Virus record (IMG/VR): IMGVR_UViG_2537561930_000009
Length of the DNA: 6,492 nt
Origin: a virus
Lineage: Duplodnaviria > Heunggongvirae > Uroviricota > Caudoviricetes
Strand: one strand, 5' to 3'
Of the stretch, positions 1 to 6,492 are shown in pieces. The position numbers were made by a program, and so were the translations under genes. The notes under the pieces are model-generated. The model saw only the letters and a list, made by a program, of their open reading frames with translations. It was not told where the DNA came from and made no database searches. Within the stretch, counting starts at the first letter, position 1, and the number at the start of each line of letters is the position of its first letter.

Positions 1-10
1 TTTAGTGTAA

Positions 11-116
11 TGTTCTCAGATTGCGGCTTTAATTCTTGATTTGTGTTCTTTATTATGCTTTTGTCATTAACTTGTTTTTATGTTCTTTATTTGTGTTCTT
101 GGGTTGGTAAGGTTGG
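11..116. repeat. Short direct repeats in AT-rich leader: TGTTCT(T/C) at 11-17, 44-50, 81-87 and 94-100, ATTTGTGTTCTT at 39-50 and 89-100, and GGTTGG at 102-107 and 111-116; function unknown (iteron-like or protein-binding sites possible)
   Basis: Read directly from the sequence; no coding frame covers the region. Functional assignment is speculative. Confidence 0.25.
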
Positions 117-289
117 GAGAATTAATAGAGAAAACGTATCTCATTGATGATTTTTATCATGTTTCCCTAGTTTTACATGATTTCCTTTCTTAAAAAAAGA
201 TGATGAATATCAATTAGTTATTATTATATTGTTGTTCGTTTCATGCATTTCGGGAGGAGAACAAAAGATGATTTGGCTTAAATATTCAC

Positions 290-367
290 CTTTGCGTTTT
301 TCGTTTTGCTTTGCCTTTTTCATGCAAATTTGCTAGAAATAAGCAAAGATTTAATTATTAAGCAAAG
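290..367 (+). promoter_or_regulatory. Putative sopA promoter/operator with repeated CTTTGC/GCAAAG hexamers and a 10-bp palindrome
   Basis: CTTTGC at 290-295 and 309-314, GCAAAG at 343-348 and 362-367, perfect palindrome GCAAATTTGC at 324-333. Candidate -35 TTGCTA (330-335) and -10 TAATTA (353-358) with 17-bp spacing. GGAG at 377-380 sits 8 nt before the sopA ATG. In F plasmid, SopA autorepresses via CTTTGC repeats in its own promoter (established knowledge); exact sites here are inferred. Confidence 0.45.
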
Positions 368-388
368 TTACAAGCTGGAGATGACAGT

Positions 389-1555
389 ATGTCTTTGAAA
401 AAGTTATTGCAAGATTGTGTTACGAGAGGTCAAGAAATGACCAAAGCAATTGCTATCGCTCAATTCGGTGATGATAGTCCTGAAGCTCGGCGTATCACCC
501 GCCGATGGGGTATAACTGAAGTAGCAGATTTAATTGGTGTAACTCCTCAAGCAATTAGAGATGCTGAAAAGAGCGGGCGTTTACCTGCACCTGACTTTGA
601 AATGAGAGGAAGAATTGAACGTCGTGCTGGTTATACCATAGATCAAATCAACAGTATGCGAGCAGTTTTTGGCAACCCAAACCAACGACCACAAGATAAA
701 AACCCTGTTGTGCTTGCCGTTATGTCACACAAAGGCGGCGTTTATAAAACATCGTCTGCGGTGCATCAAGCTCAATGGTTAGCATTACAAGGTCATCGTG
801 TTCTTTTGGTTGAAGGTAACGATCCTCAAGGCACGGCCTCTATGTATCACGGTTATGTTCCTGATTTACATATCCATGCCGAGGATACTTTACTGCCATT
901 TTACTTAGGAGAACGCGATAACGCTGAATATGCTATAAAGCCAACATGTTGGCCTGGGCTAGACATTATCCCTAGCTGCCTAGCTTTACATCGTATAGAA
1001 ACAGATCTCATGCAATATCATGCTCAGGGTAAATTGCCTCATCCTCCACACCTTATGCTACGCGCAGCTATTGAATCAGTTTGGGATAACTACGATGTTA
1101 TCGTTATAGATAGTGCTCCGAACCTCGGTACAGGAACCATTAACGTTGTTTGTGCCGCTGACGTTATTGTTGTTGCTACACCTGCAGAATTATTTGATTA
1201 CGCTTCTGTTCTGCAGTTTTTCACAATGCTTCTCGATCTATTGGAAAGCGTTGACCTAGGTGGATTTGAGCCAACCGTTCGCTTACTTCTGACTAAATAT
1301 AGTCTCACTACAGGGAATCAATCACGATGGATGGAAGAACAAATAAGAAATACATGGGGATCAATGGTATTACGTCAGGTTGTACGCGTTACCGATGAAG
1401 TAGGTAAAGGCCAGATAAAAATGAGAACAGTATTTGAACAAGCAGCAAACCAACGTTCAACATTGAATGCATGGAGAAATGCTGTTTCTATATGGGACCC
1501 TGTTTGCCGAGAAATTTTTGATGATCTAATAAAACCTCGCTGGGAGAACGAATAA
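389..1555 (+). CDS. sopA: Plasmid partition ATPase SopA (ParA family, type Ia)
   Basis: 388-aa ORF with deviant Walker A KGGVYKTS and an N-terminal extension typical of autoregulatory type Ia ParA. Long stretches match the remembered F-plasmid SopA (e.g. EMTKAIAIAQF, LLVEGNDPQGTASMYHG, WPGLDIIPSCLALHRIE, VIDSAPNLG, RMRTVFEQA). SD GGAG lies 8 nt upstream. Confidence 0.95.
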   Translation: MSLKKLLQDCVTRGQEMTKAIAIAQFGDDSPEARRITRRWGITEVADLIGVTPQAIRDAEKSGRLPAPDFEMRGRIERRAGYTIDQINSMRAVFGNPNQRPQDKNPVVLAVMSHKGGVYKTSSAVHQAQWLALQGHRVLLVEGNDPQGTASMYHGYVPDLHIHAEDTLLPFYLGERDNAEYAIKPTCWPGLDIIPSCLALHRIETDLMQYHAQGKLPHPPHLMLRAAIESVWDNYDVIVIDSAPNLGTGTINVVCAADVIVVATPAELFDYASVLQFFTMLLDLLESVDLGGFEPTVRLLLTKYSLTTGNQSRWMEEQIRNTWGSMVLRQVVRVTDEVGKGQIKMRTVFEQAANQRSTLNAWRNAVSIWDPVCREIFDDLIKPRWENE

Positions 1556-2520
1556 TGAAACAGCGCTCTCTTCTGAAAAATGCTCCAGATATTAATCGCA
1601 TTATGAGTAATAATCATCATGCCCCTGAACATCAGCCCGTATCACCTATAGTTGGTGATTTAAAACGTCAACTGAGTTCATTAACCGGTAACAGCATAAC
1701 TTTGCCAGTATGCGGACGTAATGTTAACTTTAAGTTAGAGACAATTCCCGCAGATAAAGTTGAAATGGCAACAATGGTATGGCTAGGTAATGAACGCGAT
1801 CAAGATTTATTAAATGAATCCTCTCTAGCCGATTTAATCCCATCTTTTCTAACGTCTGGACAACAAAATCCAGCTTTCGCCAGAAAAGTATCTGGAATCG
1901 TTGAAGTCGCTGACGGCTCACGTAGAAGAAAAGCAGCGATATTAACAGGATGTGACTATCGCGTCTTAATTGGTGATCTCGACGATGAACAGATGCATTG
2001 GTTATCCCAAATTGGTAACGATTATAGGCCTATTAGTGCATACGAAAGAGGAAAGAGATACTTACGCAAGCTAAATGACTTTGATGGTAACGTTAAAGCA
2101 TTAGCCGAGGCTGAAAATATAGATAGAAATATTATCACTCGCTGTATCAATACAGCTGGTCTACCAAAAGATATATTAGCTATCTTCAATCATCCAGGAG
2201 AACTGTCAGCTCGTGCTGGAGATTCTTTGTTTAAGGTTTACAAAAAAAACATGGCTGCCATGAGCAATGCTGCTCATCATCTTCTGGCAATTAAAAAAAA
2301 CGGCGAGGATTTAGAATCTTCACGGATTATACAAATACTATCTGACTCTGTTCTGGTTGGCGACGAGGAAAAAACAAAAGACGAGAAAAAATATGGGGAA
2401 GGGATTACTGCTAGATATAAAGGTAATTTTGTAACTATAAAAATTGATAGCCGAAAAATATCTAAAGAAATACTAAGCAGAATTGAGTTGTTACTAGAGG
2501 AACAATCTACTGATAATTAA
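1555..2520 (+). CDS. sopB: Plasmid partition centromere-binding protein SopB (ParB family)
   Basis: 321-aa ORF whose start overlaps the sopA stop (TAATG, translational coupling). Matches remembered F SopB motifs (ITLPVCGR, WLGNERDQDLL, LIPSFLTSGQQNPAF, VADGSRRRKAA, DDEQM, GNDYRPISAYERG, ITRCINTA, HPGELSAR). Confidence 0.93.
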   Translation: MKQRSLLKNAPDINRIMSNNHHAPEHQPVSPIVGDLKRQLSSLTGNSITLPVCGRNVNFKLETIPADKVEMATMVWLGNERDQDLLNESSLADLIPSFLTSGQQNPAFARKVSGIVEVADGSRRRKAAILTGCDYRVLIGDLDDEQMHWLSQIGNDYRPISAYERGKRYLRKLNDFDGNVKALAEAENIDRNIITRCINTAGLPKDILAIFNHPGELSARAGDSLFKVYKKNMAAMSNAAHHLLAIKKNGEDLESSRIIQILSDSVLVGDEEKTKDEKKYGEGITARYKGNFVTIKIDSRKISKEILSRIELLLEEQSTDN

Positions 2521-2524
2521 GAAG

Positions 2525-2547
2525 TATCCCCTGCATTGCAGGGGATA
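2525..2547. terminator. Perfect palindrome TATCCCCTGCA-T-TGCAGGGGATA between convergent sopB and the invertase; likely bidirectional intrinsic terminator (alternatively a protein-binding site)
   Basis: 11-bp perfect arms read directly; effective stem about 9 bp with a 5-nt loop; flanked by T-containing tracts on both strands (TTGATTTAT on plus). Sits in the 49-bp gap between two convergent stop codons. Confidence 0.4.
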
Positions 2548-2569
2548 TTGATTTATGGTTGTACTCCAG

Positions 2570-3124
2570 TCAATGATTCCCAGCCGGAAACCTGCGGTAA
2601 AGCGTGGATAAAGCAACATCGAAGATAATCGCTATCTGTTTACGTGAAACACCATTCACAATAAGCCTTCCGACCTGTTCCCATTGCTCGGGTGCCAGTT
2701 TTGAGCGGCGCCCCCCTATCCTACCGTTAGCCCTTGCCACCGCTAATCCTGCACGCGTTCTTTCAATAATATTTTCCCGCTCCATCTCTGCGACCGCACT
2801 CAGCATTGTGTAGGCAAAGCGGCCAATTGATGTGCTAATTTTTATTCCTTCTGTAACAGAAATAAATTCAATGTTGTTTGATAAAAAATAGTTAAGCAAT
2901 TCAACAAGATGAATCAGAGAACGCCCCATTCTGTCCAGCTTCCAGACAATAACCGTATCACCCGGTCGTAACGCTTTTATCAGCTTATCCAGTCCTGGTC
3001 GTTTTGACTTCGCGCCAGATATTTTATCTTCAAAAATCCGGTCACATCCTGAACTCCTGAGCGCTTCCAGTTGTAACTCCAAATTCTGGTCAAAAGTTGA
3101 CACTCTCGCATAGCCGTATTGCAT
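2570..3124 (-). CDS. Serine recombinase, DNA invertase of the Gin/Cin/Pin/Hin family
   Basis: 184-aa ORF. N-terminal catalytic motif GYARVSTFDQ with the putative active-site serine at residue 9, then IFEDKISG, VWKLDRMGRS, AEMEREN.IERT, GRIGGRR and a C-terminal HTH (GVSRKQIAIIFDVALSTLYRRF). Lies adjacent to an inverted-repeat-bounded segment. By eye roughly half of residues match remembered Gin/Cin/Pin. Confidence 0.93.
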   Translation of the reverse strand: MQYGYARVSTFDQNLELQLEALRSSGCDRIFEDKISGAKSKRPGLDKLIKALRPGDTVIVWKLDRMGRSLIHLVELLNYFLSNNIEFISVTEGIKISTSIGRFAYTMLSAVAEMERENIIERTRAGLAVARANGRIGGRRSKLAPEQWEQVGRLIVNGVSRKQIAIIFDVALSTLYRRFPAGNH

Positions 3125-3188
3125 ACTTTCTAACCTGCAATTGTTGCTGAAAGCGGGAAAAAATATCGTTCAGACGACACGGAGGCAA

Positions 3189-3214
3189 TTCTCAAAAACC
3201 TCGGTTTACAGGAA
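3189..3214. repeat. Left crossover site (gix/cix-like), TTCTCAAAAACCTCGGTTTACAGGAA, predicted central dinucleotide at 3201-3202
   Basis: Near-identical to the remembered Mu gix site (TTATCCAAAACCTCGGTTTACAGGAA). Its reverse complement recurs at the right window edge; the perfect inverted repeat spans 3194-3222 versus 6464-6492 (29 bp). Confidence 0.85.
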
Positions 3215-4363
3215 ACGGTAAATCAGGCTTCTGGCGCATTACAGAAAAACCAGAACGGCGCAGATATTCCCGATAAAAAACTATTCCTGCGTAATATCGG
3301 CACAACAAATTCAACAACCATGTCTTTTAGTGGTGGTACAGGATGGTTCAGGCTGGCAACTGTAACCATGCCCCAGGCCAGTTCCGTGGTTTACATAAGC
3401 CTGATTGGTGGTGCAGGGTATAACGTTGGCTCCCCGCATCAAGCAGGCATCTCTGAGCTGGTTCTTCGTGCGGGAAATGGGAATCCAAAAGGTCTTACCG
3501 GTGCGTTATGGCGACGGACATCGGTTGGACTTACTAATTTTGCATGGGTGAATACATCCGGTGATACCTATGATGTTTATGTTGAAATAGGTAATTACGC
3601 CACACGTGTTAATATTCAGTGGGATTATACCAGTAACGCCAGCGTAACGATTCATACATCACCATCTTATACAGCGAATAAACCAACAGGCCTGACAGAT
3701 GGAACTGTATATGTAATTTACAGTTCGCACATTAAACCGACTGCTGCTGAGGTTGGGGCGTTGTCATTATCTGGCGGTCAATTGAATGGTGCACTGGGCA
3801 TCGGAACATCCAGTGCTCTTGGCGGTAACTCGATTGTTTTGGGTGATAATGACACCGGATTCAAACAGAATGGTGATGGTATTCTGGATGTTTACGCTAA
3901 TAGTCAGCGAGTATTCCGCTTTAAGAATGATGCAGCTTTTTCTTTAAAAAAATTGCTGATCGGAGATAGTAAAACTTTTTCATTATCAAGTTCAAACACA
4001 TCCACTAAGAACGTAATCTTTAATCTATGGGGTACCTCTACTCGTCCTGTTGTAGCTGAATTAGGTGATGATTCAGGATGGCATTTCTATAGCCAGCGAA
4101 ATACAGATAACTCGGTAATATTTTCTGTTAACGGTCAGATACAGCCCAGCAACTGGGGGAATTTTGATTCACGCTATGTAAAAGATGTTCGCCTGGGTAC
4201 ACGTGTTGTTCAGACTATGCAAAAAGGTGTGATGTATGAAAAATCAGGTCATGTAATTACAGGGCTTGGCATTATTGGCGCTGTTGATGGTGATGACCCA
4301 GCAGTATTCAGACCAATACAAAAATACATCAATGGCACATGGTATAACGTCGCACAGGTGTAA
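3194..4363 (+). CDS. Tail-fibre C-terminal variable region, arm 1 (Sv-like); 5'-partial exon that needs fusion to the constant part by inversion
   Basis: The frame is open from 3134 and runs through the crossover site (encoding KNLGLQETVN) in frame into the 347-aa ORF listed at 3320..4363; a stop at 3131-3133 closes the frame upstream. Ends ...RPIQKYINGTWYNVAQV, resembling remembered side-tail-fibre C-termini. No plausible independent start, consistent with Mu S / P1 S organisation. Confidence 0.85.
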   Translation, partial: KNLGLQETVNQASGALQKNQNGADIPDKKLFLRNIGTTNSTTMSFSGGTGWFRLATVTMPQASSVVYISLIGGAGYNVGSPHQAGISELVLRAGNGNPKGLTGALWRRTSVGLTNFAWVNTSGDTYDVYVEIGNYATRVNIQWDYTSNASVTIHTSPSYTANKPTGLTDGTVYVIYSSHIKPTAAEVGALSLSGGQLNGALGIGTSSALGGNSIVLGDNDTGFKQNGDGILDVYANSQRVFRFKNDAAFSLKKLLIGDSKTFSLSSSNTSTKNVIFNLWGTSTRPVVAELGDDSGWHFYSQRNTDNSVIFSVNGQIQPSNWGNFDSRYVKDVRLGTRVVQTMQKGVMYEKSGHVITGLGIIGAVDGDDPAVFRPIQKYINGTWYNVAQV

Positions 4364-4894
4364 GTGATGCAGCATTTAAAAAACATCAGATCTGGAAATC
4401 CAAAAACAAAAGAACAATATCAGCTAACAAAGAATTTTGATGTTATCTGGTTATGGTCCGAAGACGATAAAAACTGGTATGAGGAAGTGAAAAACTTTCA
4501 ACCAGACACAATAAAGATTGTTTACGATGAAAATAATATTATTGTCGCCATCACCAAAGATGCATCCACGCTTAACCCTGAAGGTTTTAGCGTCGTTGAG
4601 GTTCCCGATATTACAGCCAACCGACGTGCTGATGACTCCGGGAAGTGGATGTTTAAGGATGGAGCTGTGGTTAAACGGATTTATACGGCAGACGAACAGC
4701 AACAACAGGCCGAATCACAAAAGGCCGCATTGCTTTCCGAAGCTGAATCAGTCATCCAGCCGCTGGAACGCGCTGTCAGGCTGAATATGGCAACAGACGA
4801 GGAGCGCACACGACTGGAAGCATGGGAACGCTACAGTGTTCTGGTCAGCCGTGTGGATACGGCAAATCCTGAATGGCCACAAAAGCCTGAATAA
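4364..4894 (+). CDS. Tail-fibre assembly protein (U/Tfa family), arm 1
   Basis: 176-aa ORF immediately after Sv (GTG at 4364, ATG at 4367). Resembles remembered Tfa chaperones ([28 protein letters not shown]...[22 protein letters not shown]). N-terminal and central parts are shared with the U' remnant on the other arm. Confidence 0.9.
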
Positions 4895-4899
4895 AAATT

Positions 4900-4919
4900 A
4901 AGGCCCGATAGCGGGCCTT
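4900..4919. terminator. Bidirectional intrinsic terminator hairpin between convergent U and U' (AAGGCCCG-ATAG-CGGGCCTT)
   Basis: 8-bp GC-rich stem with 4-nt loop; A-run upstream (TTTTT on the minus strand after the hairpin) and GTTTCATT downstream on plus; sits between the two convergent stop codons. Confidence 0.5.
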
Positions 4920-4922
4920 GTT

Positions 4923-5273
4923 TCATTCTGGTTGTTCTGGAAACGTTACTGGCAGGCTGGAGGTGTCTGTAGATTCGACTTTCTGCGCATAGAGCATCCA
5001 CTCGGTTAATTTTTGTTTATTCTCGTCGGAAATGATACCCAGCCGTAGCTGTGAGTCCCATAGCTGTGTTTTATCCCTGACGAGCTGTAGCAGGCTTTGC
5101 TTTTCATTTTCCGCTTGTTGCCTCTGCTCTTCCTCGGTATAAGTTCGCTTTATCACTACGCCATCTTTGAACATCCATTTACCCGAAATATCAGCCCGGC
5201 GATTTGCTGTAATATCAGGAACCTCAACGACACTTTTTCCCTCCGGGCAAATTGCAGTCACATCCTTTTGCAC
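4923..5273 (-). CDS. Tail-fibre assembly protein (U'/Tfa family), arm 2; N-terminally disrupted, probable pseudogene as sequenced
   Basis: 116-aa ORF from GTG, aligning with U residues 61-176. The homologous start (ATGATG at 5457..5452, 3 nt after the Sv' stop) encodes [21 protein letters not shown], then a TAA at 5394..5392. Relative to U there is one extra base near the T-run at 5396-5398, and the downstream frame continues ...TKNSGVVWLWTEDGKNWYEE. Confidence 0.6.
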   Translation of the reverse strand: MQKDVTAICPEGKSVVEVPDITANRRADISGKWMFKDGVVIKRTYTEEEQRQQAENEKQSLLQLVRDKTQLWDSQLRLGIISDENKQKLTEWMLYAQKVESTDTSSLPVTFPEQPE

Positions 5274-5459
5274 GTCGCATATAACATTATTTTCATCATA
5301 TGCAATTTTTATAGTGTCGTCCTGAAAGTTCTTTTGTTCCTCATACCAGTTCTTACCATCTTCGGTCCATAACCAGACGACGCCTGAGTTTTTAGTTTAA
5401 AAGATATTGTTCTTTGGTTTTTGGATTGCCTGGCTTTATGTTTTTTAAATGCATCATAA

Positions 5460-6221
5460 TCAAATACTCGATACGTTATACCATGTGCCATTAATATTTT
5501 TTTGAATTGGTCTGTAATAAACACCACCAATATTATCGGCAGAGTGTGAGCCTGTATCCTGAACAATTATTCCGGTATATGCGCAACCAGATGGAGCCTG
5601 ATGTGTCCATGTTGTGCCATTATTTGCTGGTTTGTATGATGATGCGCCACCAAGTCGGATATCACGTACATAACGGGAGTCAAAATTACCATAATTGCCG
5701 GGAATAATTTGCGAGCCGCAAAGCCAATTCCCGTTATTATCCATGTACGCCTGACCATCGGTGCCATTGTCTGTCCTTGAGTTATTAATCATGTAGATGC
5801 CAAATTGCCTATTCCCCAGTCCACCAATCATAAATTTGCGGTCAGCATGGTCCTGACGTAGCAATGCCTGGGCGCTATCAGTTTTAACTATATTTCTCCC
5901 AAAGATAGCGTTGTTATCGCGCATCTGAATCCACATACCATTACTGCTGTTAATAGCAAAACGGTTTGCAAATATATCCCCTGTAACATCAAGACCATGC
6001 CCCATGCTTATCCGACCAGTTCTAAGATTAAGCGTAAAGGGGCGTAGTGGCCCTATATCACCATTTTCTCCCTCGTTCTCTCGTGTAGGGATGATATGCA
6101 GGCATTCTTCAGAACGGCGAAAAATGGCACCAAAAGATGAATTAAATATCCTCAGTGCATTGACTGTCGATATTTTTACTTCACTGCTAGAAAAGGGCTT
6201 TAACAAGGACAGACAAAGCAT
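5460..6221 (-). CDS. Tail-fibre C-terminal variable region, arm 2 (Sv'-like), C-terminal portion; out of frame with the crossover-site frame
   Basis: 253-aa ORF ending ...YYRPIQKNINGTWYNVSSI and sharing GNFDSRYVRDIRLG with arm 1. Its frame is open only from 6233 and is +1 relative to the frame entering from the right crossover site. Confidence 0.7.
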   Translation of the reverse strand: MLCLSLLKPFSSSEVKISTVNALRIFNSSFGAIFRRSEECLHIIPTRENEGENGDIGPLRPFTLNLRTGRISMGHGLDVTGDIFANRFAINSSNGMWIQMRDNNAIFGRNIVKTDSAQALLRQDHADRKFMIGGLGNRQFGIYMINNSRTDNGTDGQAYMDNNGNWLCGSQIIPGNYGNFDSRYVRDIRLGGASSYKPANNGTTWTHQAPSGCAYTGIIVQDTGSHSADNIGGVYYRPIQKNINGTWYNVSSI

Positions 6222-6492
6222 CCCATTTAAGAGTCATCAGGTCTTTTGTTGTGGTGCTCTGGCGGCTTCTCCATTTGAAATATTCATTGCCGTTGTCGCC
6301 TGTTTCAAACCACATGAATGAATCAGTGTCGCTGTCGGCATTATTTTTAAAACCAATCTTTGCCCAGTCAGTATTTCTAACCCAGGCAAGGATTGAGTCG
6401 TTTTCAAAAGTAAGCCCACCGGACAAGGTATCGCCATTCTTTTGCACGGCGTTCCTGGCCCTGTTTACCGTTTCCTGTAAACCGAGGTTTTT
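6187..6492 (-). CDS. 3' end of the tail-fibre gene as currently joined (constant part beyond the window, reading through the right crossover site); terminates at TAG 6189..6187
   Basis: Minus-strand frame is open from the window edge: KNLGLQETVNRARNAVQKNGDTLSGGLTFENDSILAWVRNTDWAKIGFKNN...FMWFETGDNGNEYFKWRSRQSTTTKDLMTLKWDALSVLVKALF*. These motifs resemble remembered side-tail-fibre proteins. 5'-partial at the window end. Confidence 0.75.
   Translation of the reverse strand, partial: KNLGLQETVNRARNAVQKNGDTLSGGLTFENDSILAWVRNTDWAKIGFKNNADSDTDSFMWFETGDNGNEYFKWRSRQSTTTKDLMTLKWDALSVLVKALF
6472..6492. repeat. Right crossover site (gix/cix-like), TTCCTGTAAACCGAGGTTTTT..., truncated by the window end; predicted central dinucleotide at 6484-6485
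   Basis: Reverse complement of the left site; matches the remembered gix sequence TTCCTGTAAACCGAGGTTTTGGATAA over the visible 21 bp. Confidence 0.85.

Follow-up and report, generated by a model that had tools for sequence, protein, structure and literature searches.

The window analyzed here, which is the entire 6,492-bp draft contig AQFH01000052.1 from the 2013 draft assembly GCA_000356745.2 of Escherichia coli 201600.1, carries an invertible side-tail-fiber segment with two alternative arms, one of which is interrupted. We consider it probable that this arm, referred to below as arm B, is a recently inactivated cassette of a Cin/Gin-type invertible segment lodged in an N15-like prophage. 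The arm is broken by a single inserted base, the plus-strand A at 6189, which creates a premature TAG (6189-6187, minus strand) together with a frameshift, and its cognate tail-fiber assembly chaperone gene, U', is frameshifted by a second inserted base. Both insertions, at exactly these positions, are absent from all relatives examined, in which the same genes occur in an uninterrupted architecture; that they are present in the DNA of the strain, beyond the assembly alone, is what we infer.

The backbone of the element is represented in the window by a SopA/ParA gene (389-1555, plus strand) and a SopB/ParB gene (1555-2520, plus strand), both supported by the ORF listing and the Pfam scan. Contigs encoding exactly the same ParB protein carry a TelK-type protelomerase and a 1,331-aa RepA upstream of parA and, past the invertible segment, a fiber gene of ~990-1,011 aa (with phage_tail_N and Phage_fiber_2 domains) followed by lom, J, and I. 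Based on this gene content of the relatives, we assign the element to the N15-like linear plasmid prophages; its tail is of the lambda type, and the C-terminus of its side fiber is switched by a Cin/Gin-type invertase. The Sop-type genes thus lie inside the window, and the protelomerase and a telRL-like palindrome are known from relatives. The palindrome (ATAATTCCCCATTATACGCGCGTATAATGGGGAATTAT) is found in the metagenome scaffold L088 at 8380-8417, with its center 48-49 nt beyond window position 1, and a second relative, L087, is palindromic at 8350-8448 of its contig about the same telRL-like point, which fits read-through of a hairpin telomere. As the right end of the contig (6492) falls within a crossover site, the contig is predicted to span from near the physical end of the linear plasmid prophage to the inversion breakpoint. 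An 18-nt direct repeat occurs twice between the telomere and parA, at 33-50 and 83-100, 50 nt apart (TTCTTGATTTGTGTTCTT and TTCTTTATTTGTGTTCTT); these copies could be candidate partition or telomere-proximal binding sites. Literature searches returned no papers on N15-like phages with invertible fibers and none on strain E. coli 201600.1 or its WGS accession. The database entry for the contig lists three samples, which are probably the GenBank and RefSeq copies of one assembly and were not counted as replication.

The invertible segment is 3.3 kb long and is bounded by a 29-nt perfect inverted repeat (100% complementary), whose two arms form the left crossover site (3194-3222), adjoining the invertase gene, and the right crossover site (6464-6492). 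The invertase itself (2570-3124, minus strand) is an intact serine recombinase of the Cin/Gin/Pin type, with Pfam matches to Resolvase (E = 2.9e-45) and HTH_7, and exactly the same protein is encoded on 74 contigs. Within the segment lie two convergent cassettes, each combining a fiber C-terminus with a chaperone. On the plus strand are arm A, the intact alternative fiber C-terminus (3191-4363), and its intact chaperone U (4367-4894; identified by Pfam, with the exact protein on 7 contigs); arm A faces the invertase in the assembled orientation and would thus be silent. On the minus strand are arm B, running from 6492 down to 5460 and amounting to a 343-residue variable arm once one base is removed, and the frameshifted U', running from 5457 down to 4923. 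Between the convergent U and U' genes, at 4900-4919, is a GC-rich hairpin (AAGGCCCG ATAG CGGGCCTT) that looks like a two-way terminator.

That the segment inverts is directly evidenced by L088, in which positions 11640-14941 correspond to window 3189-6492: the backbone is 100% identical and the segment is reversed, while L087 has it in the same orientation as the window. Several family contigs (L091-L093) stop just beyond the invertase gene, near the left crossover site, which would fit a break in the assembly where both orientations of the segment coexist. In the ParB-exact relatives, in Yersinia phage vB_YpM_44, and in the ATCC 25922 plasmid group, the constant part of the fiber (Sc) is encoded outside the segment, past its invertase-distal end. 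In L087, the intact 1,011-aa fiber comprises a 668-aa Sc and a 343-aa arm B in a single frame, and its U' encodes 177 aa. The window itself stops inside the right crossover site, and the constant part lies outside it. Given the position of Sc in the relatives, arm B would be the arm joined to Sc in the assembled orientation. The same consideration applies to the original prediction, which had labeled arm B as currently expressed: because the contig ends inside the crossover site, with the constant part of the fiber beyond it, the label is best read as presumptive. The name Sv' given to the arm there is likewise positional only; by homology, arm B is of the Mu S (G+) type.

The closest relatives allow the differences private to the window to be placed precisely. 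L088 is identical to the window over 1-3222, and over 3531-6492 it differs only at 6381, where there is a substitution, and at 6189 and 5396, where the window has the two 1-base insertions. Neither insertion is present in L086, which is 99.15% identical over window 6300-3821, or in L087, which is 99.4% identical over window 1-6491; a viral contig, L078 (97.5% identical), also lacks the insertion at 6189. Arm B as a whole differs from its nearest relatives by only one to three substitutions, and once base 6189 is removed, its protein differs from that of L088 by one residue. The substitution at 6381, a coding-strand G where all 81 related sequences compared have A, changes Ile to Val and is private to the window; outside a patch in arm A, it is the sole substitution that separates the window from L088. 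L087 (GCA_013363225.1, WUUG01000004.1) has a 1-base parA deletion of its own at the equivalent of window 807 and a noisy inverted duplicate with many indels, and it is unsuitable as a lone reference. The patch in question covers the N-terminal part of arm A (3319-3530), which has 15 substitutions relative to L088 within 212 nt, many of them also differing from L087, unlike the remaining ~6.3 kb, which is almost identical to L088. It resembles a tract acquired by recombination within the silent arm, in which case parts of the segment would have their own recombination history.

At the arm B lesion, the frame entering from the right crossover site, translated on the minus strand from 6492, provides 101 sense codons in the Sc frame (6190-6492), ending in ...KWDALSVLVKALF, before it stops at the TAG. 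The 3' part (5460-6188, minus strand) comprises 242 codons and a stop and corresponds to approximately residues 269-503 of the Mu tail fiber S, including the receptor-binding tip; it is in the +1 frame, which is open from 6233 down to its stop codon (5462-5460). The interruption, the continuation of the fiber homology in the +1 frame, and the AAAA at plus-strand 6191-6194 are as the original prediction had described them, and we agree with its conclusion that the fiber in this orientation would be without its tip. It had further proposed that the conceptual fused protein be compared with homologs: with 6189 removed, the alignment to Mu S covers the full length of the arm (5yvq_A residues 168-503; E = 2.3e-150), and it is only after this removal that the homology is continuous in a single frame, the deposited arm breaking at about Mu S residue 268. 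The break falls inside a single Pfam Gp34_trimer match (arm residues 43-153). The two halves of arm B are parts of one gene, with a split of the homology far beyond chance. The tip itself (5460-5670, residues ~274-340) has a different affinity, in that its last ~70 residues are closer to the short tail fiber chain 9cuy_c (E = 1.9e-19) than to Mu S, and the DNA identity of arm B to L078 ends at approximately window 5662; the receptor-binding tip is likely to be mosaic.

The proposed cause of the interruption, a change in the length of the 4-nt run, did not survive comparison with relatives. The run at 6191-6194 is TTTT on the coding strand in every relative examined, namely Mu, SfMu, two E. coli elements, L078, L086, L087, and L088. 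Instead, at the junction the relatives have GCCCTTTTC-AGCAGT where the window has GCCCTTTTCTAGCAGT. As it is flanked by C and A, the position of the extra base is unambiguous: it is the plus-strand A at 6189, which supplies the T in the TAG. Shortening the run, as had been suggested, would produce KALSSSEVK, as opposed to the KALFSSEVK of the intact junction (...VKALFSSEVK..., VLVKALFSSEVKIST). A true homopolymer frameshift near the crossover site is seen in a different element, the Mu-like prophage of the E. coli elppa5 chromosome (L001, ~1546-1589), where an A8 run gives CAAAAAAAATGG against the C-AAAAGAATGG of the others; its fiber gene is annotated as two overlapping CDSs, and the same assembly also has a frameshifted baseplate J gene.

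The second insertion, absent from the original prediction, lies in U' and bears on the choice between a pseudogene and an error. The 5' part of the gene (5395-5457, minus strand) has an extra base in the TTT run at 5396-5398 (on the coding strand, AA to AAA), its frame ending at TAA 5394-5392, and the 3' part (4923-5394, minus strand), which retains the Pfam Caudo_TAP match, is in the shifted frame. Here the window has CTTTTAAACTAAAAAC and L061, L086, L087, and L088 have CTTTTAACTAAAAAC, the plus-strand TTT of the window being TT in them. Unlike the insertion at 6189, this one lengthens a short run; the resulting frameshift falls after codon 21. With one base removed, U' encodes a 177-aa Caudo_TAP protein letter-identical to the protein on 40 other contigs, as well as to the U' of L087 and L088. 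An identical 116-aa U' fragment was also encountered in the Logan contig L085 (SRR33714886, an unrelated sample), and this was considered as an independent replication of the lesion and rejected, since L085 lacks the extra A and has instead a 20-nt deletion at the equivalent of window 5343-5362 that leaves the same C-terminal fragment. L085 thus appears to be an independent disruption of the same chaperone type.

The 6189 lesion is seen in only one draft contig, AQFH01000052.1. When a 101-nt stretch spanning the site was used as the query, 428 records from 418 complete E. coli genomes matched, and the two-ORF arrangement is found in 0 of these 428; the best matches are 99.0% identical (101 versus 100 nt), and no 100% match tops the ranking. 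The viral and metagenome collections contain no match to a 30-mer covering the lesion; the corresponding intact 29-mer has 74 matches among viral contigs. In 78 intact 29-mer occurrences, all of which carry TTTT by construction of the search pattern, the lesion is likewise absent (0/78), as it is from the closest relatives (L086, L087, and L088); most of the 78 read on for 209-265 codons, and a few relatives (L055 and L026) are broken by a change of frame elsewhere. A 20-mer of the lesion had one match (L005) in 185,579 species-representative genomes, where about one such match is expected by chance, and it was dismissed because these 20 bases are all that is shared with an unrelated MAG.

Several explanations can be weighed against this evidence. 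The original prediction had listed a pseudogene, a sequencing error, and a programmed frameshift, and these are indeed the right options, although the homopolymer invoked for the error is of normal length and 14 longer runs in the window are correct. A programmed +1 ribosomal frameshift at CUU UUC UAG C would yield the full-length fiber, as a +1 shift restores the frame, and the site, with a stop codon in the A-site position and CUU two codons upstream, loosely resembles that of prfB, which reads CUU UGA C. However, tRNA-Phe on UUC cannot re-pair on UCU, leaving the site without a slippery P-site codon, and the upstream GUUAAAGCC, as read from the sequence, has no Shine-Dalgarno-like element. 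U' has its own, unrelated frameshift, and the arrangement is missing from the 428 records, the 78 intact occurrences, the nearest relatives, and the viral and metagenome collections. Since it is not conserved, a conserved programmed frameshift is set aside as effectively refuted, and we regard recoding at this site as extremely improbable. We accord an equally negligible chance to a two-piece fiber, in which the downstream 253-residue ORF would be translated separately and attach non-covalently to the truncated shaft. Gene callers, including RefSeq, do give that ORF an entry of its own, a phage tail protein of 248-253 aa; but the split lies inside one Pfam trimerization domain (residues 43-153), in the middle of the continuous Mu S alignment, and occurs in no relative, the ATG at 6221 has, as read by eye, no well-spaced ribosome-binding site, and the chaperone needed for folding of the tip is itself frameshifted.

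Of greater weight is the possibility that the strain has intact copies of arm B and U' and that the two extra bases, perhaps with the substitution at 6381, are local, non-homopolymer errors of assembly or consensus. We hold this to be possible but not probable. The lesions are unique to one assembly; the repaired U' is identical to the protein on 40 contigs and the repaired arm B is one residue away from that of L088; and two indels and one substitution, the only differences from L088 outside the arm A patch, all fall within 1.2 kb, as in a locally poor consensus. Moreover, fiber cassettes recur in several prophages per genome (873 of 5,426 genomes match, none at more than 4 places), a complication for assembly from short reads. 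Against this, there are zero differences from L088 across the 3,222 nt of the backbone, and four other proteins have letter-identical counterparts in independent assemblies (ParA on 251 contigs, ParB on 29, the invertase on 74, and U on 7). No gap relative to L088 occurs in any of the window's 14 runs of at least 6 A/T or at least 5 G/C, among them two A8 runs in parB, a C6 run in the invertase gene, and, in the arm B module, runs of T7 and T6. That all of these are correct argues against a homopolymer artifact, and the usual signature of 454, Ion, or nanopore data is absent. Were errors evenly spread, both indels would fall in the 1.57-kb module with a probability of only ~0.06, and the flanks of each insertion match the same relatives on both sides, with no chimeric junction.

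The recent decay of the arm B cassette, which we favor, draws on the same distribution. The arm B module makes up 1,570 of the ~6,280 comparable nucleotides and holds all three private changes (0.25^3 = 0.016), and such clustering fits a module with its own history. Loss of either the fiber arm or the chaperone would leave the remaining gene free to decay. In addition, the extra base at 6189 is outside a homopolymer, and disrupted arms recur in relatives: besides the frame changes in L055 and L026 and the 20-nt U' deletion in L085, the P7 record annotates a split U gene (Ua/Ub). Counting against decay, the 6189 lesion has no independent replicate; two indels to one substitution is an unusual mutation spectrum relative to so close a relative; and a +1 insertion that does not duplicate a neighboring base is an uncommon spontaneous event. 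A more elaborate version, in which both insertions are real and selected, such that the invertase toggles the display of the side fiber (tip or no tip) and not host ranges, as a form of bet-hedging phase variation, strikes us as unlikely.

Under recent decay, a single T inserted between the C and the A of ...CTT TTC AGC... would have generated the TAG and shifted the frame after residue 101 of the 343 of the arm, and a further insertion (AA to AAA) would have frameshifted the cognate U' after its 21st codon. Joined to the constant part of ~668 residues, as it would be in the assembled orientation, arm B would give a product that stops at about residue 769 of 1,011 and has neither the distal shaft nor the receptor-binding tip. 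Were the intact invertase to flip the segment, the intact arm A and U would again provide a complete fiber. By analogy to lambda, the phage may tolerate the loss through its reliance on J for essential receptor binding.

The switch itself is a standard system of the Mu G/P1 C type in an N15-like backbone. Like the G segment of Mu and the C segment of P1 and P7, it has an adjoining serine invertase, short inverted crossover sites, and two convergent cassettes of tip and chaperone; the DNA of arm B is 85-91% identical to the S genes of Mu, SfMu, and P1, its protein aligning with Mu S residues 168-503, and the split U of P7 offers a parallel to the broken U'. In contrast to those elements, here the segment sits in a lambda-tailed linear plasmid prophage of the N15 type (protelomerase, RepA, SopAB, J, and Lom) rather than a myovirus of the Mu/P1 type, and one arm is disabled. 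Among cryptic prophages, e14 (with its Pin segment), Rac, and Qin have frameshifted or truncated stf/tfa genes adjoining a Pin-type invertase. However, these are defective chromosomal remnants, unlike the window, which has intact parA, parB, invertase, arm A, and U genes and whose near-identical relatives look complete. The closest precedent for the arm B lesion is the stf frameshift of laboratory lambda: a 1-base frameshift in lambda PaPa, as compared with Ur-lambda, splits the lambdoid side-tail-fiber gene into two ORFs, and this removes the side fibers while viability is kept, as the essential receptor is bound by J (PMC12617516, citing Hendrix and Duda 1992). The relatives of the window element similarly carry lom and J beside the fiber gene. 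The two cases differ in that here the fiber C-terminus is one of two invertible alternatives, so that inversion can bypass the lesion, and in that the chaperone gene is also hit and the lesion is known from one draft contig. The break in arm B is either a commonplace pseudogene or a slip of assembly; frameshifted fiber cassettes are familiar, and no new mechanism is called for.

These observations bear on how such segments are annotated and interpreted. The 248-253-aa "phage tail protein" is a fragment of one 1,011-aa fiber gene and the 116-aa "tail fiber assembly protein" is a fragment of one 177-aa chaperone gene, and each of the two fragmented genes is one base from an allele that is common elsewhere. 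More generally, a nearby homopolymer should not be blamed for a frameshift without alignment to intact relatives. Should the lesions prove real, arm A alone ought to be considered when the host range of this prophage is predicted.
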